A stretch of DNA of 64,000 nt from Methanobacteriota archaeon. Its GTDB lineage: Archaea; Thermoplasmatota; Thermoplasmata; SG8-5; JAGLSY01. The position numbers were made by a program, and so were the translations under genes. The stretch spans positions 2,222-66,221 of the forward strand of contig JAEHCO010000001.1 in assembly GCA_020697715.1 (NCBI GenBank). Direction: 5' to 3'. Within the stretch, counting starts at the first letter, position 1. Each line of letters opens with the position of its first letter. Below the pieces are notes generated by a model. The model made no database searches. It had not been told where the DNA came from and worked only from the letters and a program-made list of their open reading frames with translations. This document shows positions 32,416 to 63,953 of this stretch, one piece after another.

Positions 32416-35400
32416 TTAAGAAATGTCTGGCTCCCCTTGCCCTTCAGCCTCAACCTCAATTTCAGCATCTGGCTCTGGAGATCCTTCCACACCCTCCGGC
32501 TTTCCACCACTTCCACCTCTGGTGAATCCAATAACAGCCAGCACACCCATAACGACAGCCGCGATGACCGCGCCCCAGGCCCATGCCGGGGTCTCGATGA
32601 CCGTGTCCTGTGTGGATGGATCGGCGGTGCCATTATTCCAAACAGTTGTATTATGATATTCTGGAATTGTGTTATTGGCCCATTCGGTCGTGTTGTGGTA
32701 TTCTGGAATTGTCTCATTGTTCCATATTGTTTGATTGTGATACTCTGGAACTGTCTCATTGTTCCAGATGGTCTGATTGTTGTACTCTGGAACTGTCTCA
32801 TTGTTCCAGATGGTCTGATTGTTGTACTCTGTGACAATGAGGAAATCAGAATCCATGAAATCCGCTATGCCGTCATTGTCATCGTCTGGTGGAAGATCAG
32901 TGTCATCCAATGGGTCAAATCCACCTGCAATTTCGACTGCATCGTCCCAGTTATCATTGTCATCATCATCATCCACCGAATCGTCAATTCCATCGCCATC
33001 ATTATCTGATACCATTGTCGGATCAAGTGGGAAGTCATCAGAGGTATCTGGAGTGCCGTCATTGTCATCGTCCAGGTCTGTGGTGTCCGGTTGACCGTCA
33101 TTGTCTGTATCCAGATCCACAGTAAGGGTGAATATCCGGGTGTCATTGGCACCGTTCCCATCATCAACTGTGACCTCGACATTGTAGATACCTGCCTGCG
33201 CATTGTTGGGTGTTCCGGACAATATTCCGTCATTGTCTATTGAAAGCCAGCCTGTGACATTACCGGACAGGTTCCAGGTCGTGGATGGGTCATCTGTGGA
33301 ATCATAATCGACCGAGTACAATGCTCCAGTGTTGGTGCTCGGAACATCTGGGGTTGTTATACTGGGGCCCATGTTCTCCACATCGAAGGTGTAATTATAG
33401 AAGCCTTGGTGGCCCACAGGATCCGTGGCCGTGATATTTGCATAGTATGTGCCTACATCCACGTTCAAAGGAGTTCCAGATATTACTCCAAATGAGGATA
33501 TGGACAGCCAGCCTGTGGCATCGGTTTCCAAGCCCCATTGCATCATGCCAGATCCAGGAAGAGGTTGAAGGGCTGAATCAAAAACGATCATGTAATTTGA
33601 ATCTTCAATAGCCGTGTCCATCATGGTCACTTGCCCTGTCGAGATAATTGTGGAGAACGGAGTCAGGTATGGGTATGAAGTGGTCTCCATAATGCCCCAG
33701 ACATTTGTGAAGTTCCATGGCGGGTTGAATGTCGCTTGCTGCTTCATCTCAGCAGTGGTCTTACCAGTTGCACCAGTAAGTCCGCCAGCGCCGATTCCTA
33801 TTCCTGTTACAGAAGTGTCGGTATCCCAAAAACAATCTATGATAGCGCCAGAATTGTTATATCCGGCAAAGCCACCCGAATTGAGATTACCGATTGCCCT
33901 ACCTGTGCTGTAACAATTCTTTATCGTGCCAATGCCCCATACATATCCTGTGAATCCACCAACCCGGTCATTACCAATAGCATTTCCCATGCTGTAGCAG
34001 TTCGCGATGATACCGTGGTTCTGTCCTGAAAAACCACCAACATATTCAATTGTTCCAATAGAGCTCCCAGTACTGTAGCAGGCAGTGATCGATCCAACTT
34101 CATTGATACCCACAAAACCACCAACATAACTATCTGTTCCAGTTGCACCCCCTGTGCTGTAGCTTGCCGTTATCGGTCCTTCGTTCCATCCTACAAAACC
34201 ACCAATATACATATGTCCACTGGCACTACCTGTGCTGTAGCAATTTGTGATCGTGCCGACATTGGTCATAAACCCCGCGAAGCCCCCAACATAATCAAAA
34301 ATTCCTGTGGCACTGCCAGTGCTGTAGCAATTTGTGACCTGGCTATTATCAATATATCCAACGAAACCACCAACATACATATCTCCATTTACAATACCGG
34401 TGCTGTATGAGTTTATGATCGTGCCGCCAATATTAAATCCAACGAAGCCGCCGACATAATGATCGATCGATGTGGCATCTCCTGTGCTGTAGCAGTTAGA
34501 GGCGGTATTGCCATTAAGACCGATGAAGCCGCCGACATTGTTAGCACCGCTGGCATCTCCTGTGCTGTAGCAGTTAGAGACGGGATTGCCATTAAGACCG
34601 ATGAAGCCACCGACATGATCATCACCACTGGCATTGCCAGTACTGTAGCAGTTAGAGACGAGATTGTTATTAAGACCGATGAAGCCACCATAATAATCTC
34701 CCGATGCAAAAGAGATGGCATTGCCGGTGCTGTAGCAGTTTGTTATAGTGCCACTGTTACTTCCTGTGAATCCTCCTGCATAATCATCGACCCCATTGGC
34801 ATCTCCCGTACTATAGCAATTTATTATGTCTGCCTGATTTTGGCCTACAAAGCCTCCTGTATACTCAACTGCGGTTGACGTGCCAGTACTGTAGCAATTG
34901 GAGATATTACCTACAAAATTAAGTCCTACAAATCCACCAGCGGTCCATGAGATACCATTTACAGAACTGGTACTGTAGCAGTAAGTGATAGTGCCACCAT
35001 TATTTGTTCCAACAAGCCCGCCAACATCAAAGATTCCAGTTACGTATCCTGTGCTGTAACAGTCAGTGATCGTGCCCATATTTCTTGCAACCAAGCCTCC
35101 AACAGTATCTTGGCCATCTATATCTGAATTGTTCAGGCCAATGCCAGTTAAGCTGGCTGTTTCGCTGATAATGCCAAAGAGGCCAACTTGATCTGTGGTG
35201 GAACGGTTTATTATCAAATTAATTATTTCAAAGCCCTGGCCATCCAGAGAGCCATTGAACTTCGATGTGGTATTACCAATTGGTGTAAACCCTGCGCCAG
35301 AATCCCAGATATTGGTAATTGTGGCATCGATATCATTGCCCAATACGTAACTTGCATTCATGTCCAAGCGTATGTAATACAAATCAAGAACATCCTCCAC

Positions 35401-35610
35401 AATGTAAGGGTTGCCAATACTACCATCTCCACCACCGAAAGCTCCTCCGGCAAGTGGGACAGGGCCGGGAACAATTTCCTCACCCTCTACATTCGCGGTC
35501 ATATCCAGCATCACAAAAAGTGAGCTGAGAACTAGCATAGAACTGATAATTAATGTGGCTGTTTTCTTCATGATATCATTTCCCCTATCAATGTGAGGGA
35601 AATGCACCAT
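32416..35610 (-). CDS. Giant surface protein, paralog of 28649-32359 (GLUG repeats, Ig-like, TSP3-like repeats, sequon stalk, TM anchor)
   Basis: 1064 aa; same architecture and near-identical C-terminal module; downstream flank ATAATAACATTTCCGTAATATTGTTAAG duplicated after both paralogs. Confidence 0.75.
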   Translation of the reverse strand: MVHFPHIDRGNDIMKKTATLIISSMLVLSSLFVMLDMTANVEGEEIVPGPVPLAGGAFGGGDGSIGNPYIVEDVLDLYYIRLDMNASYVLGNDIDATITNIWDSGAGFTPIGNTTSKFNGSLDGQGFEIINLIINRSTTDQVGLFGIISETASLTGIGLNNSDIDGQDTVGGLVARNMGTITDCYSTGYVTGIFDVGGLVGTNNGGTITYCYSTSSVNGISWTAGGFVGLNFVGNISNCYSTGTSTAVEYTGGFVGQNQADIINCYSTGDANGVDDYAGGFTGSNSGTITNCYSTGNAISFASGDYYGGFIGLNNNLVSNCYSTGNASGDDHVGGFIGLNGNPVSNCYSTGDASGANNVGGFIGLNGNTASNCYSTGDATSIDHYVGGFVGFNIGGTIINSYSTGIVNGDMYVGGFVGYIDNSQVTNCYSTGSATGIFDYVGGFAGFMTNVGTITNCYSTGSASGHMYIGGFVGWNEGPITASYSTGGATGTDSYVGGFVGINEVGSITACYSTGSSIGTIEYVGGFSGQNHGIIANCYSMGNAIGNDRVGGFTGYVWGIGTIKNCYSTGRAIGNLNSGGFAGYNNSGAIIDCFWDTDTSVTGIGIGAGGLTGATGKTTAEMKQQATFNPPWNFTNVWGIMETTSYPYLTPFSTIISTGQVTMMDTAIEDSNYMIVFDSALQPLPGSGMMQWGLETDATGWLSISSFGVISGTPLNVDVGTYYANITATDPVGHQGFYNYTFDVENMGPSITTPDVPSTNTGALYSVDYDSTDDPSTTWNLSGNVTGWLSIDNDGILSGTPNNAQAGIYNVEVTVDDGNGANDTRIFTLTVDLDTDNDGQPDTTDLDDDNDGTPDTSDDFPLDPTMVSDNDGDGIDDSVDDDDDNDNWDDAVEIAGGFDPLDDTDLPPDDDNDGIADFMDSDFLIVTEYNNQTIWNNETVPEYNNQTIWNNETVPEYHNQTIWNNETIPEYHNTTEWANNTIPEYHNTTVWNNGTADPSTQDTVIETPAWAWGAVIAAVVMGVLAVIGFTRGGSGGKPEGVEGSPEPDAEIEVEAEGQGEPDIS
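32657..32840 (-). repeat. In-frame 42-bp tandem repeat (about 4.4 copies, two identical) encoding 14-aa double-sequon units (PEYHNQTIWNNETV)
   Basis: Units start at 32657, 32699, 32741, 32783, 32825; 32741-32782 is identical to 32783-32824. Confidence 0.8.
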
Positions 35611-44915: not shown

Positions 44916-46472
44916 ATGGCTGAGACACTCACCATACTGAAAGGCGTCAGTATAAATGATGACGGCCAGGTATCCATGGATCTCAGAGAATGGAGCATTG
45001 AGGATATCGTATCCACCATGAGCAAGGTGTTCGATTCGCTGATCGCGGTCTCCGCTATCACCAAAGGTGATGAAAAGGCCTACCTGGAAGCGGATGATTC
45101 CGTAATGAGGATAAAAAATCAATTCAAGTCCCAATTTGTCTCACTTGGCATAGAGAAGCATATCCTGAAGGGAGGTTTGAGATCCCATCTGGACGTGGGA
45201 ATTGAAGGAGCGGATAAGGTATTGGGGGGAGGGATCCCCAAAGGCAATACCATATTATTGCTCGGACCACCTGGAAGTGAGAAATACTTATTCGCATACC
45301 AATATATAATCCAGGGACTGAGGGATGGAAGTGCATGTCTTATCAGCACATCGGTCACTGACCATAAAGGAATGAAGAACAATCTTTCAAAGTTGAAGAT
45401 CAAGCCATCCACATTCGAGGGCCAGGGATTATTGAAGACCATCGACTGGTATTCTTATAAGAAAGAAAATCTGGTGGGTGTGGAGGATGATGGAAATGTT
45501 TTCAGAGCGTCCAAGGACATAACCAATCTTGATATCGCGATAGGATCGGCTGTCAACAAGCTCTCCTTTGCCCCGACAAAAAGAGCGATGCTGGATATAA
45601 TATCACCAGCACTCAATATCTATGATCATTCCATGGTCATAGAGTTCGTTCAAAAGGAGAAGAACCTATTGAAGACTAAGGGCTTCACGACACTTCTGGT
45701 GGTTGAGAGCGGAGCTCATGATGAAAGAACATTGTCCACTCTTAAACATCTTTCAGACGGTGTGTTGATTATCGAGAAAGGCAGCAAAGGCCAGCTTACA
45801 TTCAAAGTAGAAGCTTTATCTGGCATGAAGTTCGACCAGAAGGCCCATCGCATCAAGGTGACCAAGAAAGGTCTGGAGATCATTTCCAATGTGAAGGATG
45901 AAAGCTCCATATTACAGGATCTGCAAGAAATACCAGCGATTGACAAAATAACAGCAGAAAAACTTATCGAGGCTGGCTTCACCAGCATGGAAAAATTGGA
46001 AAAGGCGAAGAAGTCGGAACTGGAAAGTGTTACAGGCATTGATGCGAATGTGTCCAATAAGATCTACGAATACATACATTCTGTAGAATATTCAAAGAAG
46101 ATAATAGAGAGAAAGAGCCAGAACTGGGTAAGGAAAGGATTGCAATTCATTGGTAAAAAAGAGATAGACAAGGGAATGCAAAGTTTCCAGAGGGCGATAG
46201 AGATCCACCCCAAGAACTCAAGTGCGTGGCTGGAGATGGCCAGGCTTCTTTACAATGAAGGTAGCAAAGATGATTCCAGAAAATGCTTTGACAAAGCTTT
46301 GGAGATCGATCCCACATTGGCAAAAGAATGGTTCGATAAGACCGAGGTACAGGAAGCTGGATGGGGCTGTCCCGTATGTGGGTTCTACATAAAGGAAGAA
46401 AATATCGAATGCCCTGAATGTGGTGTCATATTCAGTGTTGAAGAAAGAGAGAGCCAGAGGGATCAAATATGA
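44916..46472 (+). CDS. KaiC/RecA-like domain protein fused to helix-hairpin-helix, TPR and C-terminal zinc ribbon
   Basis: 518 aa; KaiC-like core (GIEGADKVLGGGIPKGNTILLLGPPGSEKY) with atypical P-loop lacking GK[ST]; HhH (IPAIDKITAEKLIEAGF…VTGIDANVSNKI); TPR-like pair; CPVCG…CPECG; start uncertain. Confidence 0.65.
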   Translation: MAETLTILKGVSINDDGQVSMDLREWSIEDIVSTMSKVFDSLIAVSAITKGDEKAYLEADDSVMRIKNQFKSQFVSLGIEKHILKGGLRSHLDVGIEGADKVLGGGIPKGNTILLLGPPGSEKYLFAYQYIIQGLRDGSACLISTSVTDHKGMKNNLSKLKIKPSTFEGQGLLKTIDWYSYKKENLVGVEDDGNVFRASKDITNLDIAIGSAVNKLSFAPTKRAMLDIISPALNIYDHSMVIEFVQKEKNLLKTKGFTTLLVVESGAHDERTLSTLKHLSDGVLIIEKGSKGQLTFKVEALSGMKFDQKAHRIKVTKKGLEIISNVKDESSILQDLQEIPAIDKITAEKLIEAGFTSMEKLEKAKKSELESVTGIDANVSNKIYEYIHSVEYSKKIIERKSQNWVRKGLQFIGKKEIDKGMQSFQRAIEIHPKNSSAWLEMARLLYNEGSKDDSRKCFDKALEIDPTLAKEWFDKTEVQEAGWGCPVCGFYIKEENIECPECGVIFSVEERESQRDQI

Positions 46473-47413
46473 GCTTGGGCAAGAAGGCCTTCGCCTCGGC
46501 TCCCTGTAGCTTGACATTATTGGGATATGACCTACACGATCATATTGGAACCTCTGTGGGGATCGCACTGGATAAGCGAATAAAATGTGAGACCATGATA
46601 TCGGAAAGCTTCATGGTCAATAACGATGTCTATGATGGGAACAAATATCCTTATGTTAGGGCGGCTCTGCTTCATGGATGGAGCGATATTGACACCCCTG
46701 TCTCATTCGAGATAGATGATATTACGATCCCAGATAATGTCAGTGGCTATGGACCTGGACATATCGCCTCCACCCTGGGTTCCCTGTCAATGATGAACGA
46801 CAATCTGATGTTCGAGGATATCTTATTGAAAGGCCATGAGATATTGAAGGAGAATGATAGCAAGATGGGGGTATTGGGACTATCCACCGCTATCAATGGA
46901 TATGGCACTGTATTATCCAATGAGATCGGCAAAGGCCACTTATGGAGTGTGGGAAAGGGGAAGAAAGCGAGGCACATCCATCATCTCGACATGCCGGATA
47001 TGACATTCGTTCTCGCATTTCAGAAGGGTGGATCTGGGAAAGAGGATTTCTCTGGAAAGTTCAATAATTTCGCCAGGCGTCAGAGTGGCTTCTTCAAAGA
47101 CATGCTGAAGGATTCGGCAAAGCTGGCTAAAAAAGGTCTTCAGGCTTTGGAGCGTGGGGATATGGAAGGGCTTGGCCAGGCCATGAACGAGACCGACAAG
47201 TTGACGAAGACGATGGGCATGTACACGCCAGAACTGAAAGTCGTGGCCGACCTGTGCAGGAGCCAGGCATTTGGAGCGAGGCTTTGCATATCGGAGAAAC
47301 ATGCGTATGTGGTGACTTTGACCAATGAGCCGGAAGAATTGGCCAGCAATATCCGGGAAAAGGGACATATCGCGATGGTCGCTGGCATATCCCGCGATGG
47401 ATTGCAGATATAA
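46469..47413 (+). CDS. GHMP-kinase-like protein (divergent; function unassigned)
   Basis: 314 aa; weak GHMP-type motifs (APCSLTLLGYDLHDH…, Gly/Ser-rich loop PGHIASTLGS, C-terminal GARLCISEKHAYVVTL); 4-nt overlap with upstream gene. Confidence 0.4.
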   Translation: MSLGKKAFASAPCSLTLLGYDLHDHIGTSVGIALDKRIKCETMISESFMVNNDVYDGNKYPYVRAALLHGWSDIDTPVSFEIDDITIPDNVSGYGPGHIASTLGSLSMMNDNLMFEDILLKGHEILKENDSKMGVLGLSTAINGYGTVLSNEIGKGHLWSVGKGKKARHIHHLDMPDMTFVLAFQKGGSGKEDFSGKFNNFARRQSGFFKDMLKDSAKLAKKGLQALERGDMEGLGQAMNETDKLTKTMGMYTPELKVVADLCRSQAFGARLCISEKHAYVVTLTNEPEELASNIREKGHIAMVAGISRDGLQI

Positions 47414-52122: not shown

Positions 52123-52527
52123 TCATTTCTTATATTTGTGGATCAACATCTTGTCCCAGTCCACATCATTCTCAAAGCCCTTGCTTTTCAGATATCGACT
52201 CATGGACTCGGTGACCCTGGCCACTTCCAATGACTTGGCTGAATGGTAATGTCCGTAGATGTACATCTCCAGGTCATCTGATTCTTCCTGGATCGGGAAT
52301 ATCATTCTCATGCGTCCCTGGCGATTGTAACCTTCTGGCTTCTTGTTCTTTTCCAGATCGATGAGGTTCTCCTTTATCATCATATTGACCACCTCTTCCT
52401 CTTCGGGTGTCTGGTCCGTGTCCTCCAGGAACTTGAGGTACATCTCTGAGAATATAGGTGTGAAGTCCTTGTATTGCACACCCTTGTCAAATTTTATGTG
52501 TCCGCTTCTTACTTTCATATTGATCAC
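52123..52527 (-). CDS. Hypothetical small acidic protein
   Basis: 134 aa ORF downstream of pilin gene; no recognisable family. Confidence 0.4.
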   Translation of the reverse strand: MINMKVRSGHIKFDKGVQYKDFTPIFSEMYLKFLEDTDQTPEEEEVVNMMIKENLIDLEKNKKPEGYNRQGRMRMIFPIQEESDDLEMYIYGHYHSAKSLEVARVTESMSRYLKSKGFENDVDWDKMLIHKYKK

Positions 52528-52649
52528 TTTTCTATACTATCCAAAATAGGATGGAGTGATATTTAATGGTTGTGGCTAAGAATTCGAATGTGTTATTCGG
52601 ATCAGAAATGAGAATAATAATAATAATAATAAGTAAAGAGGAACAAGCA

Positions 52650-52695
52650 GAGAAGGATAATAAAAAAGAGAAGATTTGCGGGTCCGAAGACCCGC
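52650..52695 (-). terminator. Hairpin (GCGGGTC-CGAA-GACCCGC) followed by T-rich tract, terminator of pilin gene
   Basis: Perfect 7-bp stem with tetraloop at 52678-52695, 30 nt downstream of pilin stop; T-rich run on gene strand. Confidence 0.5.
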
Positions 52696-52724
52696 ATTAA
52701 CTTAGTTGATTAGCGATAGCTGGC

Positions 52725-53231
52725 TTACATATTCAGTAAGCTGCCGCCGCTCATCTGGATCTCTTGTCCGTCTAGGTCGACTATTGTAATTTCGTATTCA
52801 CCAGCCTGTGCGTTTGCCCAGGTCAATGTTACGTAGTCTCCACTGTTTATAAGAGAGTTGGCTCCGATATCAGTTGCTACTGCAGTGATATCCTGTCCAG
52901 CGCCAGATTTTGCAACAGAAATTGCTGTTGGCGGATTGGCATCAAACGATAATACATAACTAGTGGAATTAACACCAGCTATTGTTATTGTTATGTCTGT
53001 CCATTCGATATCTGTGCTGAACGATCCGAACTTCATTGTTGCGGTTGTTGAAGAGTCCTTATCGAGCTCTGACCAGTTTCCTGTTGCAGCTACACTGCCT
53101 CCACCGCCAAAGTCCATGACCATGACGTAAAGCACAGCAGCCAAAACCACGGTGATAGCGACCATCAAAATGGTAGCAATAACCGGAGACACTGCGTCGT
53201 CCTTCTTTCTTATATTCCATGTGTTTTTCAT
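52725..53231 (-). CDS. Archaeal type IV pilin-like protein (class III signal peptide)
   Basis: 168 aa; N-terminus MKNTWNIRKKDDAVSPVIATILMVAITVVLAAVLYV matches the prepilin-peptidase-processed motif; beta-rich Thr/Ser-rich C-terminal domain. Confidence 0.65.
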   Translation of the reverse strand: MKNTWNIRKKDDAVSPVIATILMVAITVVLAAVLYVMVMDFGGGGSVAATGNWSELDKDSSTTATMKFGSFSTDIEWTDITITIAGVNSTSYVLSFDANPPTAISVAKSGAGQDITAVATDIGANSLINSGDYVTLTWANAQAGEYEITIVDLDGQEIQMSGGSLLNM

Positions 53232-53367
53232 ATATTTTGTCCTCCTGTAGACTATAAGCCTACGTAATTATAGATTACAAGGACAATATATTTATAGTTT
53301 TCTCAAAATAATACGGCAATCAACGTATATACATACGGCAAATACCGATGCATTGTGCCTCAAAGGA

Positions 53368-54120
53368 TCATATGTTCTTTGCGGATATACCCTTATCATC
53401 TATGTTGCATGATAAGATCTTAGTTTTCTCTGGGTGATTCCTCACCTTCCTTATCAGCAGATTCCTTGTGAAAGTGGAGCCCTCTCTGAGCCTCTCCAGT
53501 TCTATTGTGATATCCACTATATCCTGGACACCACTTTCCACGCGATTGTCAAAAACCCCTTTCAGCATCGTGACGAGGGCTATGCCATTATTTAGTTGAG
53601 TATGAGCCTTGATGGTCCTTATGGCGGAAAGCACATCAGCCTCATCATAATACTCTAGGAAGAAATCCAGAGAATCCAATACGATCCTAAATGGTGGTTT
53701 GAGCTTCGATATACCATATGTGAGCGTGGTCAGGAAATTGACATCCATGCTTTGTTCAGCCTGGGCGGCATTGAATTGCTTGATATCTCGCATTTTCAAT
53801 CCTTCCTGGCGATACTTGCTAACTTCCAGGTTCTTGGCCAGAACCTTCTCATAATACATCTTGCCGATATTCACGACCCTGATATCCTGCTTCCACCCGA
53901 ATTCACCCATGGCGGTCTTAACAGCCTCATCACTTTCAGTGGTGGAGAAATAGGTAACGTTCTCATTTCCTATTCCAGCTGCTGCAAACTGCTTGGCAAA
54001 TAGCTCGACACCGGTTCCGGGTATACCGGTGATCAATATCGTACATCCTTTCGGAACACCATCCATCAGGGATTTATCCAGCTCCTTCACACCTATGCTG
54101 GTAGTTTCGATCAAACTCAT
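53368..54120 (-). CDS. KaiC/RecA-like ATPase domain protein (third of triad)
   Basis: 250 aa; P-loop-like GIPGTGVELF (non-canonical) and KaiC-type fold; 4-nt overlap with upstream gene. Confidence 0.7.
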   Translation of the reverse strand: MSLIETTSIGVKELDKSLMDGVPKGCTILITGIPGTGVELFAKQFAAAGIGNENVTYFSTTESDEAVKTAMGEFGWKQDIRVVNIGKMYYEKVLAKNLEVSKYRQEGLKMRDIKQFNAAQAEQSMDVNFLTTLTYGISKLKPPFRIVLDSLDFFLEYYDEADVLSAIRTIKAHTQLNNGIALVTMLKGVFDNRVESGVQDIVDITIELERLREGSTFTRNLLIRKVRNHPEKTKILSCNIDDKGISAKNI

Positions 54121-54689
54121 TCACCCCCTATGGTTATCGTGGTATCACATACCAACTTCATCATATTGGATATCTCTTCAGTGCTGAACTCTTCCATTGT
54201 GAAGACCATGGAATAGGCATCCTTGGCTCTCAGATTGTTTATGAATATATGCAAGAATTCGGACAGGATCTTCATATTATTGTGAATACCCAGGGCATTT
54301 ATGGCATCTAAAACAATGACATTGTTCTTGCCATCTGATTTCCTTATGAGGTATTCCACCTTCAGCATGATGTTCTCCAGCATGGTGGGGCTTTCCACAT
54401 AGAGCACGTTCTTGTATTTCTTGGCCCCTCCGACCATGATATGGGAAACACAGTCCACGAAGTAAATATTGGTAAGATCGATCTCCAGGATCTTCAAGAC
54501 ATCGATTATTGAATGTGATGGAATAGCCACCGTGATGTAGATGACATTCAAATTCTTCTTATTGGCGAAGATATCCACTATTCCCCTTATGGCATCGAAA
54601 TAACTATCACTGACTATCTTCAGGTTTATAGCGGATGAAGGTGGGAGCTCATGAAGCTCATCTGCCAGATCGCCAGGTGATTTGATCAT
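54117..54689 (-). CDS. KaiC/RecA-like fold protein lacking recognisable Walker A (second of triad)
   Basis: 190 aa; matches C-terminal part of KaiC-like fold (NVIVLDAINALG) without P-loop; 4-nt overlaps on both sides. Confidence 0.5.
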   Translation of the reverse strand: MIKSPGDLADELHELPPSSAINLKIVSDSYFDAIRGIVDIFANKKNLNVIYITVAIPSHSIIDVLKILEIDLTNIYFVDCVSHIMVGGAKKYKNVLYVESPTMLENIMLKVEYLIRKSDGKNNVIVLDAINALGIHNNMKILSEFLHIFINNLRAKDAYSMVFTMEEFSTEEISNMMKLVCDTTITIGGE

Positions 54690-55438
54690 AGACCACCACC
54701 GCCCTTGAGCAATGGAACAAGTAATACGCCCGCGGGTGTCAGATCCAGAACATATTTCGCTCTGGAATGTACTGTTCCTCTCATTTTCACCACTTGCAAT
54801 GTCCTCAGAAGGTCTCCCCTCCGCTCATAATTCCCCATAAGGACGATACCATCCGCGATGGCTTCCTCCACCCCGTAGAGCGAGTACCTGTCGGCAGATG
54901 GTGATATTTCGGATATCAGAAGACTGGTGCAACCCCTGGTAGAAAGAGCTTTTCCTATCTTCAATATGAATTCCCTTATCTTCTCCTCTGTTTTCAATCT
55001 GTAGCAAACGGAGGTTATGGAATCTATGACCAATCTTTTGACAGAAAGCTCATCCACGAGGTTACCCAGTGCACGAACCAGAGTGTCGACATCCTCCAGA
55101 CTGAACTCCACATTTGTCAAACCCAATCTCTCATAGATGACTGGCATATCGACGAATGCCAGTTTTCCTGTTTTTATCAGGGATTCCTCAAAGAAATCAT
55201 ATGGGATGACATTCGTGGTAAGTTTCTCAGATGATTCTGTAACTGAAACAAAAAGTGAATTCTCATCGGCCAGAGCCCCATGCACTAAAAATTCAAGGGA
55301 CAGTGTGGTCTTTCCAGTACCGCAACTGCCTGTGAACAAAATGGTATTTCCTCTGGGTATTCCTCCATTTAGAATATTATCCAAACCATCTATTCCTGTA
55401 ACGCAACGTTCTCTCTCAATGATATTTTCTGAGGCCAT
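54686..55438 (-). CDS. KaiC/RecA-like ATPase (first of triad; canonical Walker A)
   Basis: 250 aa; GIDGLDNILNGGIPRGNTILFTGSCGTGKTTL Walker A, Walker B (RLVIDSI), KaiC-type C-terminus. Confidence 0.75.
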   Translation of the reverse strand: MASENIIERERCVTGIDGLDNILNGGIPRGNTILFTGSCGTGKTTLSLEFLVHGALADENSLFVSVTESSEKLTTNVIPYDFFEESLIKTGKLAFVDMPVIYERLGLTNVEFSLEDVDTLVRALGNLVDELSVKRLVIDSITSVCYRLKTEEKIREFILKIGKALSTRGCTSLLISEISPSADRYSLYGVEEAIADGIVLMGNYERRGDLLRTLQVVKMRGTVHSRAKYVLDLTPAGVLLVPLLKGGGGL

Positions 55439-55591: not shown

Positions 55592-58500
55592 TTGAGCGAT
55601 TCCACACTTTACCTATGCCCATTTTGTGGCGCCTTCATAAACGAGGAGGCCGAGGTTTGTCCCAATTGCAGCAAACCATTGGAAGAGGAGGTGGAAGGTG
55701 GATTCGAGAAAGAGCTGGATGATCTTATAGATGAAGATCTCAATGCCATGTCAGGAAGTGAATCCTGTCCCAGATGTGGAAAGCAGCTGGAAGAAGGATC
55801 ATTAGAATGCCTGGATTGCAATATGAAGATCGAGGATGGACTGGAACCCGCATCTGAAGGAGAAGAGGAAGGAGTGGCTCTATTCCTTTGTTCAGGATGT
55901 GGGGCTTTTATCAATTCGAATTCCAATGAATGCCCCAAATGTGGTATTTCACTTGATGATGAGGCTGAAGAAGAACATGATTTTGTAGAATATGATAATG
56001 AATTGCTGGATCTCCTTGTTGAGAATGAGCCAGATGAAGAAGATGAGCTTATCCTGGAGTTGGATAGCATAGATGATCCAGAAGATCTGATATCGGTCAT
56101 TGACAAGATGCCGGATATTGAAGATGAAGAGCTATTCGATGATGAACCAGATATCGTACTTGATCTTGATCTGGCAGATGACGATCCGGAAGGCGATCTT
56201 CTTCACATGAACATTGATGATGAAATAGAGAAGACCAGGATAGTGGAATCCATTAGCGAAAGGGTAGCCGGAGAAGTGGCTATCGAAAGTGATAGTGGAG
56301 ATGAGATCATGCTCTGTGGAGAGTGTGGAGCATTTGTCTCCCAATCTTCAAAGGAATGTAATGTTTGTGGAAATGACATAAGACCTGGCAGCCATCTGGC
56401 TATTGAAAAAGATGAGATCCCCTCAGAGAATGATGGCGAAAATACAGAGACCGCCCTGAGGTCCATACTTGGGATATTGGATGATGTCATACTTGATCCG
56501 GATCCAATGGCAGATCATGAGGATGATATTGGCATATGCCAGAAATGTGGAGCTTTCATACCTCATGGCGAGAGTGCGTGTCCCGTATGTCATGCGGACA
56601 AAAAGAGTCTTCCAGATATCATATACACGGAACTGCCTATAGATGATCATGATTCTATGTCCATTTGCGGGGATTGTGGAGCTTTTGTCAAATCCGATTC
56701 AGATACATGTAATGTTTGTGGAGCCAAGGTCGATGCCGATATGCTAAGATCCATAGAGCCAGATGATGTCTTGGAGATGGGGATGGATGCGGATGACCCA
56801 ATGGATATTCTGAAAAAAGCACTGGGTGTGCTGGAATTACGAGATACGACACCAGAGGAAAGGATCGGTGGAGAACTGGATCTATGTCCGGATTGTGGTG
56901 CTTTCGTCTCAGCTAATGCCAAATCATGCTCCATTTGTGGCAGCGATCTGATCCAGGGCACGGATATAAGCCTGGATGATGGCATAGTCATGGATCTGGA
57001 TGATGGATCGGTCATTCTTTCAGACAGTGTTTGTCCCAATTGTGGCTCCAAGTTCGGGGTCGGGGCAGGAGATTGTGAGGTTTGTGGCTTCACATTCCTC
57101 GGTGATGAAAGTGATCATGACGAGAAGGAAATGTCCTATGAAGACAGGGTGGACATATCGGATATCATAGAATTCGAGGTTCCAGAATTGACAAAGGAAA
57201 GCGCTATCGATCACCTCAATGAAATGGAAGATGATATGGATGATCTAATTCTGGATGAAGTAAAGCCTGAATCATCTGCCGAGGTTAAGAGTGGGGAACT
57301 ATCCAATGAAGAAAAGCTGGCCAGGATAGAAAAGGCCTATGAAGAAGGGCAACTTAGCAAGGCCAATTACATAATCAACAAGGCCAAGTTCTACGGACTT
57401 GTTCAGGAAATGAATGAGATAGAAGATGACCTGGATGAGCTTTTGATAGATATTGATGAGACGATGGCCGAGACCGTGGAAGTGCCGACCGAAGAGGATG
57501 AAATAGAAAGTCTGGAGCTTGGAGATCTTCATCTGAATATCGATCCAGATGCTCAGGACGACGAGGATACCCAGCCAGATGTGGAAATGGAATATGATGA
57601 TCTGTCCCTTTCAGAAGATGACATCAAAGAAGGCATCCATGACGGAAAATATGATGATATCATCGAATTCGATGATCAGGATCTGGATCTAACCCAGGAT
57701 GATACTTATCAGGAAGATCTGGATGAGCATATTGAAACTTATGAGGAAGAGGATGAGACCTCGAAAGAGGATGAAACCTCGGATGAGGATGTCATATACG
57801 AAGAGGTCGAGGTCTATGTGGACGAAGATGGCCAGGAAATAGAATATGAAGAGGTCGAGGTAAATGAGGATGACATCGAAGAGTATGAGGAGGATGTCGA
57901 TGATCCTGAAGGAACCGATTTAGATGATCATGACCCCGAGGAAACATATTTCGAAGAGGAAGACGAGATCCATGTACCCTTCAGATCACATGCCATGGCG
58001 GAGACCACTGGAGGACCGCAATATCTCAATCATTCCGGATGGGAATATGGTGTCATCGCATCACTTCTTACATCCCTCTTCTATGTCGCGCTTTCCTCAT
58101 ACATACCCATCAATCCCATATCATTGGCCATAATATTTGGCGTGATACTTATCTTCGCCTTCATAATGATGGTCACATCAAGATCCATATTCATGAAAGG
58201 CGATCTGTACCGTGGTTCCGTGTTCATGATAGGCGGAGTGATAATTTCTTTCATCCTGCTCCATTGGTTCGCGGATATCATGATCGATGATCCGATGGTG
58301 GACAAAATGCTACTGTCGATAGGAATAATGATGATCGGTATAGGAATAATCTGGATAAGGGGCAAGATCCGATATATCCATCTCTGGTTATCCGGCACCA
58401 TATTCCTATTTCTGTTCTCCATAGGAGAGCTTTATTATTTCGAGCAATGGGCCTATTCCCCCATCCAGCCACCAGGAGCGATAGTGGCTGGGATCGGGAT

Positions 58501-59152
58501 ATCTCTGATCGTGGCCAGTTCCATACTGCTGGCCTATGAGAGAAGTCTACACACTTCGATAGAGACGGAGATCGTTCGAGGAGATATGGACTATCTCAAT
58601 AAGAATTACAAGAAGGCATTGCATTCCTATGATAGGGCGCTTGAGAAAAGCACCCTGAAGACCGAATCCGCATTGAAGGCAGATGATACCAGGGAATACG
58701 ATGTCCCATGGTACAGTAAAGGTGCGACCCTGATATTGATGGGTAATTTGAAAGAAGGAATTGAATGTCTGGATATGGCTCTATCCATAAATCCCAATAA
58801 CGAGGTCGCATGGGTGAGCAAGGGAAATGCCTATTCAAAGCTCGGGGACATGAGCAGTGCTTTGGAATCATATAACAATGCATTGATCGCGAACCCCAGA
58901 TACATAATAGCCTGGAACAATAGAGGTAATGCATTTGCCAGGAAGGAGAATTATATCGAAGCCCTGAAGAACTATAACAGGGCGATCAAGCTGGATCCAG
59001 ATTATAAGGACGCGTGGATCAATAAGGGCTATGTCCTGATGAAGATGGGAAAGCAGGATGAGGCGCTCAAATGTGTGTCGATGATAGGGGAGAAAAAGAT
59101 GGGACAGCATGGAGCAGCCAGTACCAATGGCAGTACTAAGGCCTCTGCCTGA
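55592..59152 (+). CDS. Giant membrane protein: eight N-terminal CxxC-N(9-11)-CxxC zinc ribbons, acidic linker, about six TM helices, C-terminal TPR repeats
   Basis: 1186 aa, TTG start; ribbons such as CPFCGAFINEEAEVCPNCSKP, CSGCGAFINSNSNECPKCGIS, CGDCGAFVKSDSDTCNVCGAK; hydrophobic block (…VIASLLTSLFYVALSSY…); four or more 34-aa TPR units. Confidence 0.7.
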   Translation: MSDSTLYLCPFCGAFINEEAEVCPNCSKPLEEEVEGGFEKELDDLIDEDLNAMSGSESCPRCGKQLEEGSLECLDCNMKIEDGLEPASEGEEEGVALFLCSGCGAFINSNSNECPKCGISLDDEAEEEHDFVEYDNELLDLLVENEPDEEDELILELDSIDDPEDLISVIDKMPDIEDEELFDDEPDIVLDLDLADDDPEGDLLHMNIDDEIEKTRIVESISERVAGEVAIESDSGDEIMLCGECGAFVSQSSKECNVCGNDIRPGSHLAIEKDEIPSENDGENTETALRSILGILDDVILDPDPMADHEDDIGICQKCGAFIPHGESACPVCHADKKSLPDIIYTELPIDDHDSMSICGDCGAFVKSDSDTCNVCGAKVDADMLRSIEPDDVLEMGMDADDPMDILKKALGVLELRDTTPEERIGGELDLCPDCGAFVSANAKSCSICGSDLIQGTDISLDDGIVMDLDDGSVILSDSVCPNCGSKFGVGAGDCEVCGFTFLGDESDHDEKEMSYEDRVDISDIIEFEVPELTKESAIDHLNEMEDDMDDLILDEVKPESSAEVKSGELSNEEKLARIEKAYEEGQLSKANYIINKAKFYGLVQEMNEIEDDLDELLIDIDETMAETVEVPTEEDEIESLELGDLHLNIDPDAQDDEDTQPDVEMEYDDLSLSEDDIKEGIHDGKYDDIIEFDDQDLDLTQDDTYQEDLDEHIETYEEEDETSKEDETSDEDVIYEEVEVYVDEDGQEIEYEEVEVNEDDIEEYEEDVDDPEGTDLDDHDPEETYFEEEDEIHVPFRSHAMAETTGGPQYLNHSGWEYGVIASLLTSLFYVALSSYIPINPISLAIIFGVILIFAFIMMVTSRSIFMKGDLYRGSVFMIGGVIISFILLHWFADIMIDDPMVDKMLLSIGIMMIGIGIIWIRGKIRYIHLWLSGTIFLFLFSIGELYYFEQWAYSPIQPPGAIVAGIGISLIVASSILLAYERSLHTSIETEIVRGDMDYLNKNYKKALHSYDRALEKSTLKTESALKADDTREYDVPWYSKGATLILMGNLKEGIECLDMALSINPNNEVAWVSKGNAYSKLGDMSSALESYNNALIANPRYIIAWNNRGNAFARKENYIEALKNYNRAIKLDPDYKDAWINKGYVLMKMGKQDEALKCVSMIGEKKMGQHGAASTNGSTKASA

Positions 59153-62100
59153 CCTGCATGATGCATATTCCGATCATGGTTGCCAGGATCAATGAGAAGA
59201 TATTACTGAACTCGTCAATAATGATTATATCGACCGATGCCACATCACTATCCGGCAGAAGCATGTAGCCACTGGAAGTAGTGTAATTCAATAGTGCCCA
59301 ATTATCAACAGGGCCAGCAAGTGGCGTCGCATTGACTGTCACATTGATGAATATCGCGTATGAGCCGGGCGCGATATTTGTGAAGTACCAGCTAATATCC
59401 TGACCCAGTATTGTCGAAGGAGCTGGAACCGCGCTGTCGAAGATAATTCCAGAGGGTAATGTGTCATTTATCCAGACATTGCCCGCATTGGTCGAGCCAG
59501 TATTATTGTAGAAGATGGTGTACATGATGGTGTCATTGGCATAGGCGGTTGTGACATTGGCGGTCTTCTGGATATCTATAACAGGCCGCTGGCAGGTGAC
59601 ATTGGCCCATGAGGTCTCGGTTCCCAGAGAGTATGTCAAAGTGGCGGAATTGGATAATAATTCCAGATCGGTCGCATTGGCATTCACCTGCACCTCGATG
59701 GTTATGAGATTCGTACTCTGTCTGGGAATCTGGGTGAAGGTCCAGCCAAGATCCTGGCCAACTATCGTCACGGGCAATGGATTGGCGACCACATAATCGA
59801 CATTCGCTGGAAGTACATCATCTATCTGAACATTCCAGGCCTTTCCCAAACCTGTATTATTGTACCATATCTCGTAGGTTATCAGATCGCCTGGTTGGGC
59901 AGTGGTCACATTGGCTGTTTTGGATATGGACATATTGGGGAGTTTAGGTGCCAGTGGATCAATGGGGTCAGAAAGCTCTATTTCTTCTAGCCCAGTCGAT
60001 CGGGATGACCTTGCGGCCTCGGCATTGTGCCTGATACTATTGGTCTCATCCTCCATACCCAGCCAGTCTGACATTTCGATGGCGATGGAGATATCAGATT
60101 GCCTGGATATTCCAAGAAGTCCAAGGGGCACGCCTACCTCAATCCGGGATAGATCATTGGCCCCGGATGCTTTGCCGAGATATGTCCATGGAGTGCTCGC
60201 GGACATCTCCTCATATGAGTATATCTCGCTGGATAGTATCTTATTGTATTTGCCAGTTATAAGGATTAAATGGTCAGCTCCAAGCTGACCATTTAAATAA
60301 TGGCCTGTTTCGATATCATCATCCGCGTCTATGTATATCAACAGATGATCCATACCTTTTCTCTCAATGTGCCTCACAGGGCCGATATAACGGCTTATGA
60401 ACCTGCCAGAATAATTCGCATCATAGCTCTGGGGGATGGTGGTATTGAGCCAATTGTCAACACCTCCAGCATCGTGATCCACTACACCGTCGCCATCACG
60501 ATCCCCATTAGAATTCGCATCATCGACACCGTCATTATTAAAATCATGAGCATATGAGCCATCAGGGCCATCCAGCACATCCGGGACACCATCATTGTCC
60601 GAGTCCAAATTAGGAGAAGTCTGAGTGACATTTTGAGCCGATGGTGTTGATCTGATCCTCAGCACTGGTATTGCGGATCCTCCCATGGCCACCCCACCCA
60701 CGGATGTGTAGATGTTCAGCTCATCATCCATATTCATGCGGTAATCCCTGATATCCACATTCCTGTTCAGGAACTTCAGCTTTGCAGGATCCTTTCCTGG
60801 AACTACCTGATCATTGGCCGCATCGATATTTGGAGGTGTCGATTGCCAGTCTCCAAATGCTCCATCTATCGTCGTACCAGATGGTTGGCCATAGTGTTTG
60901 AGAGATGGTGCACTTACTATCATGTCCAAGTTGACGGTGTCGATCATGCCCACATTCAAAGGCATGAGGCCGATGGTCTGGCCATTCTCTGTCCCGGTCA
61001 ATGTGGATGAAAGAATAAGTTGAGTGATTTCAGACGGCGATAGTGGCATGGGGTCGAATAATTCCAAATGAAGGACCTGGCCGTCCACCTGCATCGAGGA
61101 TAGGCCAACCACCTCGTCAATGACAGGTTCTATCAGGCCATTATCATTCATATCCTTGTATAATGTGAATTGTGAAAGAATATCCGGACTGGATGTTCCC
61201 AATATACGGAAGTCGAGTGAGTCGATCTCCACCTCATCCTCATAGCATACGAGTTCGAAGGAGCAAGAGAGAACATCATCTCTTGCCAGTATATCATTCG
61301 AAGGGTCAGTGATCGACCTTATAGACAGGGATGCGGTATTGGGGATCATTATGCCATCGGAAGTGTCTGTATTTCCTTCGGAATCACTTGTCATGACAAG
61401 GACTGATGGTGACTGGTCTGCCAGATCGCTCATGGCCGTTCTCAGTTCGATCTTATCTCCACTCACCTTACTGGATACCGAGGATATATACATGAACCCA
61501 CTCCAGTCATCAGGATCATGATCATTATCGAATCTCAATAGTTCAGATGCTTCCACATGATTATCATAACCATGAACATCTATCAGGACATCGGCGCCCA
61601 GATTGTCGATGGAATAGCCAGTGCGATTATTCCCATCTGCATCTAGGAAGATATAGATGGAATCCACACCACTGCCATTCGCACTACCACCTTCCATCAT
61701 GGTCCCGTCAACTTGTAGGAAAATGTCAAGATATGGATGATCCAATGAAAATCTAGTATCTACCAGATCTATATCAGGGTTTATGACATCCGATACTTCA
61801 TCGGCATAGGATGTGAACTTATTCCAGTCACTGAAAGCTCCGTCTATCGAGATATCTCGTGTGTCACCATTATTCATATTCTCGGTGAATATCGGCACAT
61901 AGAGTATCAAAGATATCACAATGACAATGGATAAAAAGCCGATCTTCCACCTACGTGCTTTTTGACGATTCCTTCTCAATATAGCCATATCCTGCTTTCT
62001 CTCAACCAAGGAATCACCATTTATGAAACCATCGCCATTAACTATGCCAGAGCCGTTGACCAGGCCATTCGTTAACCCATTGGTCAAGCCATTGGTACGA

Positions 62101-63953
62101 CCTTGACCATTTGTGATTCCATTCGTCCTACCCTGCCCATTCGTTAACCCATTGGTACGGCCTTGACCATTGGTGAGACCGTTCGTTCTTCCCATACCAT
62201 TTGTAAGGCCGTTCGTCCTACCCTGGCCATTAGTTAATCCATGGGCACCACCTTGACCATTGGTCAAACCATTTGTCCTACCTTGACCATTGGTAAAGCC
62301 TTGAGCATGACCGAATTTCCTTCTCATCTTTTCAGAAAGTTCAAGATCATTGGAATGGGATATCTTCTCGGCATCCACATCGTATACCAGAGAATCCAAT
62401 ATGGACTCCAATTCTTCTTCCGTATAGTCCTCTTCTTGATCGTCCACACACTCATCCTGATCGATGACCTCGAATGACTGGTCATCATCATCGTCCTCAT
62501 CATCTAAATCAAATTCAAGGGAATCAAGAAGATCCTGCATCTCTTCATCTGACTCGACCTCATCCATATCCGTATAGCCCAATTCCAATGGATCTTCAAT
62601 TATCTCTCCATCTAAACCGAAAATAATGGGAGTTGGAGCAGTATCCGGCTCATCAGTCTCATCAAGATCAAGAACAAGAGATTCGAGAAGATCGTCCATG
62701 TCTTCATCTGGCTCATCTTCAAGGATTAGCTCGGGTTCATGTTCAATATCATCTTCAAACTCTTCACCCTCAAGATCCAGACCCAATTCTGCCAGGTCGT
62801 CCAATCCATCCAATTCCAATAAGAGCCAGTCCTCTTTGAATGCCTCATCAGAGCCCTGGTCAAGATCAGATATATCGTCATCATCGTGCTCGACCACCTC
62901 GATCCTTTCCAGCTCTTCATCCTTCAATTCCAATAATTCCAGGGAGAACATCTCGTCCTCCAATTCAGCCATTTCAGATCTGAGGATATCGTCCTTCATC
63001 ATGCCCTTCTCTTCGATCTCCATCTGCTTACAGTTCGGGCATGAACTGGAATCTCCCATAACGAAGGTGCCGCAGGACTCGCAGACCGTGAACCCTATGG
63101 TTGGAACTGTCTCGAGAAGGTCTATTTCCTCTTCAGGGTCCTCATCCGGTTCATCCAGCTCCCTGGATAATACCTCATTCACTTCCTTGGACAGGACATT
63201 CACATCTCCGATCTCATCCTCCAGATCACCCAGGGAATTGATGATGGCCTCATCCAGCTTGAATTCCTTCATGTCTATGACATCGTCACAGTTCGGACAG
63301 CTTTCTGCCCCACTGCCCAGGAATGCTCCACAGGATCCGCATATACCAATATCTAGATCCGGGGCGGTCTCAAGCCTATCCACCTCTGGTTCATCCACCA
63401 GGTCCATTTCCAATATCTCATCGATCTCGGAAGATAGCATCTCGCCACATTTGGGACACGTGTCCACATCCCCCTCCACAAATGTCCCGCAGGAACTGCA
63501 CATTTGGAAATCGATCTCCGGTATCGTCTCAAGGAGATCGTCATGCTCATCTGCCAGTTCATTGCCCAATGCTTCTGCGGTGATATCTTGACTGAATATC
63601 TCACCACAGACCCCGCAATCCTCGGATATGGAGCTGATCAATGCACCACAACTCGAGCATCTGGATAATATCTCATCAGTTACATCATCCTCATCTTCCT
63701 CCACCGTGGTGTAACATATTGGACAGACCGCACTGTGCTCGTTCAGAAATGCTCCGCAGTTCCCACATAGGTAAAATTTGATATCAGCAGCATCTTCGCC
63801 AACTGAAAGCCCCAGGAAATTGATTATGTTCTCGATCGCGCCTTTCTCATCCAAGATAAGATCCGAGGTCGAAATACGAGTGCCAGTAATGGAGCCGACA
63901 TCGACTGGCTGACCCAATTGAACATGCATCCGATTCACAATATCATGGTTCAC
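59136..63953 (-). CDS. Giant membrane/surface protein: five or more N-terminal zinc ribbons, acidic region, GxTNG decapeptide repeats, TM, about 1000-aa extracellular region with DUF11-like repeat domains, C-terminal TM
   Basis: 1605 aa from GTG start; reading frame stays open upstream to the window end, so the N-terminus may be truncated; ribbons CGNCGAFLNEHSAVCPICYT etc.; repeats GLTNGQGRTN about nine times; domains TANVTTAQPGDLITYEIWYNNTG and TANVTTAYANDTIMYTIFYNNTG. Confidence 0.7.
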   Translation of the reverse strand: MNHDIVNRMHVQLGQPVDVGSITGTRISTSDLILDEKGAIENIINFLGLSVGEDAADIKFYLCGNCGAFLNEHSAVCPICYTTVEEDEDDVTDEILSRCSSCGALISSISEDCGVCGEIFSQDITAEALGNELADEHDDLLETIPEIDFQMCSSCGTFVEGDVDTCPKCGEMLSSEIDEILEMDLVDEPEVDRLETAPDLDIGICGSCGAFLGSGAESCPNCDDVIDMKEFKLDEAIINSLGDLEDEIGDVNVLSKEVNEVLSRELDEPDEDPEEEIDLLETVPTIGFTVCESCGTFVMGDSSSCPNCKQMEIEEKGMMKDDILRSEMAELEDEMFSLELLELKDEELERIEVVEHDDDDISDLDQGSDEAFKEDWLLLELDGLDDLAELGLDLEGEEFEDDIEHEPELILEDEPDEDMDDLLESLVLDLDETDEPDTAPTPIIFGLDGEIIEDPLELGYTDMDEVESDEEMQDLLDSLEFDLDDEDDDDDQSFEVIDQDECVDDQEEDYTEEELESILDSLVYDVDAEKISHSNDLELSEKMRRKFGHAQGFTNGQGRTNGLTNGQGGAHGLTNGQGRTNGLTNGMGRTNGLTNGQGRTNGLTNGQGRTNGITNGQGRTNGLTNGLTNGLVNGSGIVNGDGFINGDSLVERKQDMAILRRNRQKARRWKIGFLSIVIVISLILYVPIFTENMNNGDTRDISIDGAFSDWNKFTSYADEVSDVINPDIDLVDTRFSLDHPYLDIFLQVDGTMMEGGSANGSGVDSIYIFLDADGNNRTGYSIDNLGADVLIDVHGYDNHVEASELLRFDNDHDPDDWSGFMYISSVSSKVSGDKIELRTAMSDLADQSPSVLVMTSDSEGNTDTSDGIMIPNTASLSIRSITDPSNDILARDDVLSCSFELVCYEDEVEIDSLDFRILGTSSPDILSQFTLYKDMNDNGLIEPVIDEVVGLSSMQVDGQVLHLELFDPMPLSPSEITQLILSSTLTGTENGQTIGLMPLNVGMIDTVNLDMIVSAPSLKHYGQPSGTTIDGAFGDWQSTPPNIDAANDQVVPGKDPAKLKFLNRNVDIRDYRMNMDDELNIYTSVGGVAMGGSAIPVLRIRSTPSAQNVTQTSPNLDSDNDGVPDVLDGPDGSYAHDFNNDGVDDANSNGDRDGDGVVDHDAGGVDNWLNTTIPQSYDANYSGRFISRYIGPVRHIERKGMDHLLIYIDADDDIETGHYLNGQLGADHLILITGKYNKILSSEIYSYEEMSASTPWTYLGKASGANDLSRIEVGVPLGLLGISRQSDISIAIEMSDWLGMEDETNSIRHNAEAARSSRSTGLEEIELSDPIDPLAPKLPNMSISKTANVTTAQPGDLITYEIWYNNTGLGKAWNVQIDDVLPANVDYVVANPLPVTIVGQDLGWTFTQIPRQSTNLITIEVQVNANATDLELLSNSATLTYSLGTETSWANVTCQRPVIDIQKTANVTTAYANDTIMYTIFYNNTGSTNAGNVWINDTLPSGIIFDSAVPAPSTILGQDISWYFTNIAPGSYAIFINVTVNATPLAGPVDNWALLNYTTSSGYMLLPDSDVASVDIIIIDEFSNIFSLILATMIGICIMQVRQRP
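62020..62310 (-). repeat. In-frame 30-bp tandem repeat (about 9 copies) encoding GLTNGQGRTN decapeptides
   Basis: Recurrent CCATTGGT…CCTTGACC units on plus strand at 30-bp period inside the giant gene. Confidence 0.6.

Follow-up and report, generated by a model that had tools for sequence, protein, structure and literature searches.

An archaeal type IV pilin gene at the end of a conserved module of KaiC-like genes in Thermoplasmatota

The window analyzed here is a stretch of 64,000 nucleotides (nt) from a genome assembly of an archaeon of the Thermoplasmatota (GCA_020697715.1; contig JAEHCO010000001.1, positions 2,222 to 66,221). A minus-strand gene of this window, at 52725..53231, encodes a genuine archaeal type IV pilin, and this gene closes a conserved module in which one to four pilins accompany an active KaiC-like ATPase and one or two KaiC-like proteins that have been inactivated. 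The pilin family is specific to Thermoplasmatota, in which the pilin gene almost always comes immediately after KaiC-like genes, one of them active and one or two inactivated. The initial annotation described the gene as standing alone and set aside the KaiC-like triad next to it; the synteny counts contradict it on both points, the pilin being the last gene of a conserved same-strand module and the triad its conserved partner. The interpretation that we favor, with a probability of about 70%, is that the gene encodes a highly expressed major type IV pilin, which would be processed between A13 and V14 and governed by a dedicated complex of KaiC-like proteins. The coordinates of the features discussed are collected in Table 1.

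Conservation of the KaiC-pilin linkage

The three KaiC-like genes of the window are referred to here, in the direction of transcription, as KaiC1, the middle protein and KaiC3, the last being the closest to the pilin. Their linkage to the pilin was assessed from 79 genome loci gathered with a profile of the pilin and then searched with the neighboring proteins of the window; 62 of these loci were evaluable, having 2.5 kb or more of sequence upstream. The genes for KaiC1 and the middle protein lie directly upstream from the pilin, on the same strand, in 45 of the 62 (median gap, 230 bp), and KaiC3 is also present in 26 of these 45. The KaiC genes are followed by one to three pilin genes, or by four in loci L015 and L071; in these two loci (2/62) the module genes are near the pilin, in an altered arrangement. 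For a reverse test, metagenome contigs were searched with a profile of the middle protein, which provided 80 loci. KaiC1 was directly upstream from the middle protein in all 60 evaluable loci, and a same-strand pilin was found downstream from it in all 44 loci with enough downstream sequence. Same-strand adjacency persists across lineages in which KaiC1 identity drops to 33–45% and the wider context is completely different. The module recurs amid entirely different housekeeping genes in one locus (L081), and another (L080) displays synteny with the window over all of the latter's right-hand 20 kb. This near-obligate coupling of a major pilin to active and inactivated KaiC-like proteins, across Methanomassiliicoccales and other Thermoplasmatota, is less ordinary than the pilin itself.

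The pilin and its predicted processing

The pilin is a further member of a known family, the relatives of which are already automatically annotated as type IV pilin N-terminal domain proteins. The N-terminus of the translated open reading frame (ORF) is MKNTWNIRKKDDAVSPVIATILMVAITVVLAAVLYVMV, and the protein passes the cut-offs of both PF07790 (Pilin_N; 35.4 bits for a cut-off of 25.2, E 2.1e-8) and TIGR02537 (arch_flag_Nterm, the archaellin/type IV pilin N-terminal domain; 51.1 bits for a cut-off of 20). Together with the DAVS site, the alignment at V14 and the fold described below, these matches bear out the archaeal prepilin-type N-terminus that had been claimed from the sequence. Homologues were found in 3663 clusters (E <= 0.001), all with PF07790; most are about 140–200 amino acids (aa) long, with a listed range of 114–204. 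The named matches are nearly all from Methanomassiliicoccales and other Thermoplasmata metagenome-assembled genomes, and the best match in a collection of species-representative genomes has 52% identity. A motif scan of the 64-kb window in six frames found no second class-III-like N-terminus.

The processing region reads KKDD-A/VSPVIATIL, the slash marking the predicted site of cleavage between A13 and V14. This prediction is made because solved mature chains begin at the position aligned to V14: with a profile of 38 homologues, the first residue of the deposited chains 8rey_M, 5kyh_A and 3j1r_A aligns to it. The solved archaeal pilus subunits found by the same profile were 8fj5, 9myg, 8gi2, 8rey and 5kyh. 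The region has the features of a class III signal, with a charged n-region, an alanine at position -1, a charged residue at -2 and a processing site preceding the hydrophobic domain. A relaxed pattern for such signals was matched, whereas a strict one failed on the proline at +3. D-A/V-S is also the processing site listed for PilA1 and PilA3, two PibD substrates from Haloferax volcanii (PMC4371748, Table 1).

The segment that follows the predicted site is by far the best conserved part of the protein: 24 of the 25 columns from V14 to V38 are invariant among the 38 homologues, and A32 is nearly so, whereas the remainder averages about 40% identity. An AlphaFold model (predicted local distance difference test score, pLDDT, 86) consists of a helix at residues 16–38, a glycine linker modeled with low confidence and a beta-sandwich of ten strands at residues 50–167, that is, the hydrophobic N-terminal alpha-helix and beta-rich globular head expected of archaeal type IV pilins. 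The best Foldseek match of this model in the PDB is 8rey_A, from the pilus of Cuniculiplasma divulgatum (27% identity), followed by archaellins and FlaF/FlaG. After the predicted cleavage, the mature pilin would have 155 residues and be acidic; its head contains N-glycosylation sequons at N52 and N88.

The head is the variable part of the gene. At the nucleotide level, the similarity between the window and L080 extends over the KaiC genes and the initial 130 nt of the pilin and reappears at the ORF downstream; positions 52586-53101 of the window have no nucleotide similarity to L080 (10131-11572), whereas the flanks are 78-90% identical. At the protein level, the two pilins are 54% identical, versus 89-98% for the neighboring proteins. 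Such variability is what would be expected of an exposed, diversifying filament subunit, and the hypervariability of a head set between conserved flanks suggests that selection acts on a structure exposed at the surface. L080 has a tandem pilin pair where the window has a single pilin. A paralogue of the pilin with 75% identity (P0002) is present elsewhere on the same contig, of 956 kb.

The KaiC-like proteins

KaiC1 is predicted to be the sole active ATPase of the module: its Walker A motif, GxxGxGK[TS], is retained in 112/112 orthologues. KaiC3, in which the Walker A lysine is missing from 72/72 orthologues, is classed on its sequence as a pseudo-ATPase. The middle protein has sub-threshold Pfam scores (23.6 bits for PF06745, with a cut-off of 26.6, and 23.3 for PF23365, with a cut-off of 27), and inspection of its sequence revealed no GxxxxGK[ST] motif. 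Its AlphaFold model is a RecA/KaiC domain (pLDDT 91), for which Foldseek returned PH0284 (template modeling score 0.71-0.74), FlaH of Sulfolobus acidocaldarius (4yds) and the KaiC C1 domain, at E values of about 1e-6. An hhalign comparison of its profile with KaiC1 gave a probability of 4%; it was the fold search that decided the assignment. Adjacent KaiC-like genes share 4 nt (ATGA) at each of the two junctions, 54117-54120 and 54686-54689, and these overlaps suggest that the three genes are translationally coupled and that their products form a complex.

The KaiC-like proteins beside the pilin score as relatives, not as orthologues, of ArlH. With the ArlH model NF052589 (cut-off 215), 35.6 bits were obtained for KaiC1 and 47.2 bits for KaiC3, with no match for the middle protein; with PRK06067 (cut-off 194), the scores were 46.6 bits for KaiC1 and 54.3 bits for KaiC3.

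Signals flanking the pilin gene

The pilin gene has a putative promoter of its own, composed of a B recognition element (BRE) and a TATA box. Its leader is laid out as follows: BRE/TATA, 26 nt, a hairpin, 1 nt, GGAGGA (the Shine-Dalgarno sequence), 8 nt and ATG, an arrangement common to its relatives, and the motif AGGAGGAC is nearly invariant in the alignment of leaders. Among the 60 relatives with a detected TATA box, 52 have 20-26 nt between it and the start of the hairpin. The usual spacing between TATA box and start in archaea places the leader stem at the predicted start of the transcript, so the predicted position of the hairpin is the 5' end of the mRNA or close to it.

This hairpin was counted in 153 non-redundant pilin leaders taken without selection (loci L001-L165), 107 of which have a Shine-Dalgarno sequence. 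In 93 of these 107 leaders (87%), versus 12% of shuffles, a hairpin with 5 bp or more ends 0-3 nt ahead of the Shine-Dalgarno sequence, and 46 of the 93 have GNRA loops. The stems vary in sequence from lineage to lineage, with compensatory changes; covariation reached 0.635, versus 0.259 for shuffled sequences and no more than 0.15 for slid partners, in a loop-centered alignment restricted to leaders having hairpins and thus biased toward structure, a bias from which the hairpin count is free. MAFFT followed by RNAalifold found no consensus structure in 56 leaders, stems of unequal length being misaligned. A search of Rfam 15 gave nothing at or near 53247-53263 and just three chance-level matches elsewhere. 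This covarying stem-loop directly before the Shine-Dalgarno sequence is a candidate archaeal mRNA-stabilizing or translation element absent from Rfam.

A second hairpin is found 28 nt past the stop codon. It consists of UGCGGGUC-UUCG-GACCCGCA (52696..52677) and is followed by AAUCUUCUCUUUUUUAUUAUCC; its fold z-score is -2.69. A perfect 7-bp hairpin and a T-tract had been reported at this site. The hairpin and tract are present and recur in relatives, and the 7 bp are confirmed; the description has to be corrected in that an additional closing U-A pair brings the stem to 8 bp and the T6 run (52667..52662) begins 10 nt beyond the stem rather than adjacent to it. A hairpin with a T-rich tail occurs after 31% of 148 related pilin genes, versus 2% of shuffles; in L002, L003, L015, L059 and L080, its structure is kept but its sequence is not. 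A scan of 2 kb for consensus terminators was not above chance (2 found versus 1.3 expected). The highly expressed, separate transcript with a terminator suggested in the initial annotation gains support from the pilin's own BRE/TATA, the strong Shine-Dalgarno sequence and the conserved 5' and 3' hairpins. Stem-loops that stabilize the 5' ends of mRNAs in bacteria provide an analogue for the leader hairpin; by analogy, the 5' and 3' hairpins would bracket a stable, abundant pilin mRNA.

The spacer that separates the pilin terminator from the next ORF contains an (AAT)n microsatellite, gagaataataataataataataag, at about 52611-52632. This minus-strand ORF of 134 aa (52123-52527) has no Pfam or NCBIfam match and is 90-93% identical in L003, L033 and L080.

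A prepilin peptidase beside the KaiC pair

In one sub-lineage, represented by L071 and L163-L165, a gene for a prepilin peptidase divergently adjoins the KaiC pair, and a TraB/PrgY-family gene is located between this pair and convergent pilin genes. The presence of the peptidase gene beside the KaiC pair in these four loci ties the module to class III processing. A search with the L071 peptidase recovered 20 relatives, none of them on the contig of a genome flagged as bearing the module.

Table 1. Position and supporting evidence of features of the KaiC-pilin module. Coordinates are those of the window, except for the last four rows, in which they are those of the locus named.
Feature	Coordinates	Strand	Evidence
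KaiC-like ATPase 1 (KaiC1), 250 aa, intact Walker A GSCGTGKT	54686..55438	-	PF06745, 186 bits (cut-off 26.6)
Middle protein, 190 aa, P-loop-less KaiC/ArlH-like RecA-fold domain (DUF7090-like)	54117..54689	-	weak Pfam matches and fold
KaiC-like protein 3 (KaiC3), 250 aa, Walker A lysine lost (GIPGTGVE)	53368..54120	-	PF06745, 85 bits
Putative BRE and TATA box of the pilin's own promoter (AGAAAAC TATAAATA)	53290..53303	-	read from sequence
Hairpin of the 5' untranslated region, GUAGGCU-UAU-AGUCUAC, ending 1 nt before the Shine-Dalgarno sequence	53247..53263	-	position-anchored hairpin count, covariation
Shine-Dalgarno sequence GGAGGA, 8 nt before ATG	53240..53245	-	sequence
Pilin precursor gene, archaeal type IV pilin of the PF07790/PilA kind	52725..53231	-	168 aa, ATG start, TAA stop
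Predicted class III signal peptide, residues 1-13 (MKNTWNIRKKDDA)	53193..53231	-	DAVS motif and alignment of solved mature chains
Hydrophobic alpha-1 segment V14-V38 (filament-core helix in homologous pili)	53118..53192	-	conservation and AlphaFold helix
Beta-sandwich head domain (about residues 46-168), fast-evolving	52728..53096	-	AlphaFold pLDDT 93-97 over residues 50-168
3' hairpin and pyrimidine/T-rich tract, candidate terminator and/or 3'-end stabilizer	52657..52696	-	structure conserved in relatives
Prepilin peptidase beside KaiC pair, L071	16182-17129		PF01478 and PF06847
Prepilin peptidase beside KaiC pair, L163	8001-8978		PF01478 and PF06847
Prepilin peptidase beside KaiC pair, L164	2778-3755		PF01478 and PF06847
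Prepilin peptidase beside KaiC pair, L165	8001-8951		PF01478 and PF06847

Proposed function and alternative explanations

We infer a regulatory role of the KaiC-like genes, together with pilin processing, filament formation, the transcript start and mRNA stability, as follows. The precursor would enter the membrane via its hydrophobic segment, and residues 1-13 would be removed by an archaeal prepilin peptidase (PibD/FlaK type, family A24). The mature 155-residue pilin, with its invariant helix, glycine-rich linker and variable, probably glycosylated, beta-sandwich head, would then be polymerized into a surface filament, helices in the core and heads outside, by an assembly machinery presumably encoded away from the pilin locus. 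The mRNA would start with the short stem-loop abutting the strong Shine-Dalgarno sequence and end with the hairpin and T-tract, a layout that fits a stable, abundant monocistronic mRNA. The three KaiC-like proteins may form a cytoplasmic complex controlling pilin production or pilus assembly, by analogy with the action of ArlH on the archaellum motor ATPase or of CirA on archaellum gene expression; the KaiC-like genes probably control the pilin. A general link between the KaiC family and archaeal type IV pili has been put forward before: the family's ATPases were proposed as type IV pilus regulators (PMC4858521), and CirA, a KaiC-like protein, affects pilin-linked motility in Haloferax (PMC10983859).

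Several observations weigh against this interpretation. The linkage is not obligatory for each copy, as 15 of the 62 evaluable loci are pilin paralogues without nearby KaiC genes, and neither a DNA-binding nor a membrane domain is present in the KaiC-like proteins. Pfam scans of the 42 long ORFs of the window found no T2SSE or T2SSF (PilB/PilC-type) domain, in agreement with the earlier statement that no assembly ATPase or platform is encoded there, and no Peptidase_A24. No assembly genes were found within 10 kb of 165 related loci (1.64 Mb), in a search for which the PilB-type ATPase queries, a regular expression and two consensus cores used with phmmer, had no positive control. Furthermore, a VirB11-type secretion ATPase is reported to be lacking in Methanomassiliicoccus intestinalis, whereas one is reported in two other Methanomassiliicoccales (PMC4858521, Table S3), so some carriers of the pilin family may lack the canonical machinery. 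There is a slim chance that, where PilB/PilC are missing, the KaiC-like ATPase and its pseudo-ATPase paralogue(s) are themselves a cytoplasmic engine or chaperone extracting and assembling the pilin; if so, a type IV-like filament would be built without a canonical secretion ATPase.

Some of the same observations have been considered in the light of other explanations. The gene might be a truly stand-alone major pilin gene next to KaiC genes by accident, just as Haloferax pilA1-6 lie apart from pilB/pilC. Its own promoter and terminator, and the paralogues without KaiC neighbors, are compatible with this possibility, but same-strand adjacency survives the low identities of KaiC1 and the changed contexts, and a pilin is downstream in every evaluable middle-protein locus; incidental adjacency is therefore improbable and is largely refuted by the synteny counts. 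Alternatively, the protein may not polymerize at all, but be a pilin-like membrane protein, cleaved or uncleaved, that is anchored by its helix and acts as the extracellular sensor or output of a KaiC-based signaling module. This would be consistent with the strict coupling to cytoplasmic KaiC-like proteins, the lack of assembly genes nearby, the reported absence of VirB11-type ATPases in Methanomassiliicoccus (PMC4858521, Table S3) and the role of a Haloferax pilin H-domain in motility regulation with the KaiC-like CirA (PMC10983859). It nevertheless seems unlikely, given that an invariant helix with a hypervariable head, frequent tandem duplication and strong expression signals typify filament subunits, that the nearest solved structures are assembled filaments, and that pili-like appendages have been reported for M. 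luminyensis (10.1101/2024.03.29.587405).

The pilin might also be an archaellin (ArlB), and the KaiC-like genes might stand for ArlH, in a remnant or variant archaellum locus, a reading suggested by names given to relatives by the Joint Genome Institute ('flagellin-like protein' and 'archaellum biogenesis ATPase FlaH'), by the structural resemblance of the middle protein to FlaH and by the archaellins among the Foldseek matches of the pilin. However, no archaellin family (ArlB/FlaB, PF01917) was reported for the pilin at E <= 0.01, the ArlH model scores are far below the cut-off, no ArlI, ArlJ, ArlF or ArlG genes were found in the window or the loci, and the pilin, at 168 aa, is shorter than its archaellin matches (9eq7_L, 181 aa; 5o4u_A, 207 aa). 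An archaellum locus is, thus, very improbable, and archaellin identity was rejected, with neither an archaellin family match nor an arlC-J accessory cluster. The reading as an ordinary Sec-dependent protein, secreted or in the membrane, whose class I signal peptide would be cut after the hydrophobic segment, for example after VAA48, would draw on the sequence S-V-A-A/T past the hydrophobic stretch, which loosely obeys the -3/-1 rule. The initial annotation had named a normal Sec signal as the result that would count against a pilin, and sequence comparison speaks against such a signal: the candidate VAA/T site is unconserved in homologues, the hydrophobic segment, with 25 nearly invariant residues, is unlike Sec h-regions, and both the family models and the solved mature pilins set processing before this segment. 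A Sec signal is scarcely credible on these grounds and was rejected.

Comparison with known systems

The favored interpretation, of a KaiC-governed major pilin, has partial parallels in several systems. PilA1-PilA6 of Haloferax volcanii belong to the PF07790/DUF1628 family and are PibD substrates assembled by PilB3/PilC3. The pilin of the window shares with them the family of its N-terminal domain, the (D or R)-A/V-S-P-V-I motif and an almost invariant H-domain (PMC4371748), and, like them, is encoded apart from pilB/pilC, has several paralogues and a small head. It differs from them in its fixed position behind KaiC-like genes, in a head unrelated beyond the fold, in its lineage (Thermoplasmatota) and in that no cognate PilB/PilC has been identified. 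The best match, both structurally and at the sequence level, is CdiPB of Cuniculiplasma divulgatum (8rey; PMC12448462), which is from the same class, Thermoplasmata. CdiPB is encoded far from its own machinery, by the most highly expressed gene of the cell (PMC12448462). The two proteins are 27% identical, and the mature CdiPB, unlike the pilin of the window, has 135 residues with extra short helices; its machinery is encoded by a dedicated operon, with two ATPases and a split platform, and no KaiC linkage has been described (PMC12448462).

ArlH (FlaH) provides a precedent for a single-domain protein of the KaiC/RecA fold encoded with a type IV filament subunit, and the middle protein and KaiC3 are like it in fold and, weakly, in sequence. 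Unlike ArlH, however, the module comprises three paralogues, of which two lack a functional P-loop, and no ArlI/ArlJ gene lies nearby. KaiC-like ATPases and inactivated homologues have been found beside type IV pilus components by Makarova et al. 2016 (PMC4858521), in loci that, unlike the module, include VirB11/TadC machinery (archaellum, clade 2, subclade 4B). A literature search, from which Makarova et al. 2017 was left out, found no published account of a machinery-less KaiC/pseudo-KaiC/pilin module or of the leader hairpin.

The carriers of the module include gut and wetland methanogens, in which pili have been implicated in cell-cell contact and electron uptake. KaiC-family ATPases are reportedly presented as signaling hubs in the 2017 mBio article by Makarova and colleagues, and the module is a compact three- or four-gene system in which the action of an archaeal KaiC-like 'signaling hub' ATPase on a type IV filament could be tested.

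Neighboring genes

Genes for two very large proteins lie next to the module. A 1186-aa protein (55592-59152, plus strand), divergent from KaiC1, has many double zinc ribbons, long acidic low-complexity stretches, transmembrane segments and C-terminal tetratricopeptide repeats (TPRs), and a 1605-aa protein (59136-63953, minus strand) has zinc ribbons and DUF11 domains. These two giants are retained next to the module only in close relatives (L002, L003, L080). Tandem giants of 1236 and 1064 aa (28649-35610, minus strand), with many GLUG motifs and He_PIG Ig-like domains, are probably surface proteins.

A fourth KaiC-like protein (44916-46472, plus strand) is fused to helix-hairpin-helix, TPR and zinc-ribbon segments. 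Its gene is overlapped by a 314-aa ORF (46469-47413, plus strand) with weak mevalonate-kinase-like similarity, and this pair is again found near the module in L059 and L080. In L081, an MCM helicase gene (17103-19733) contains an intein (PF14890 inside PF00493).

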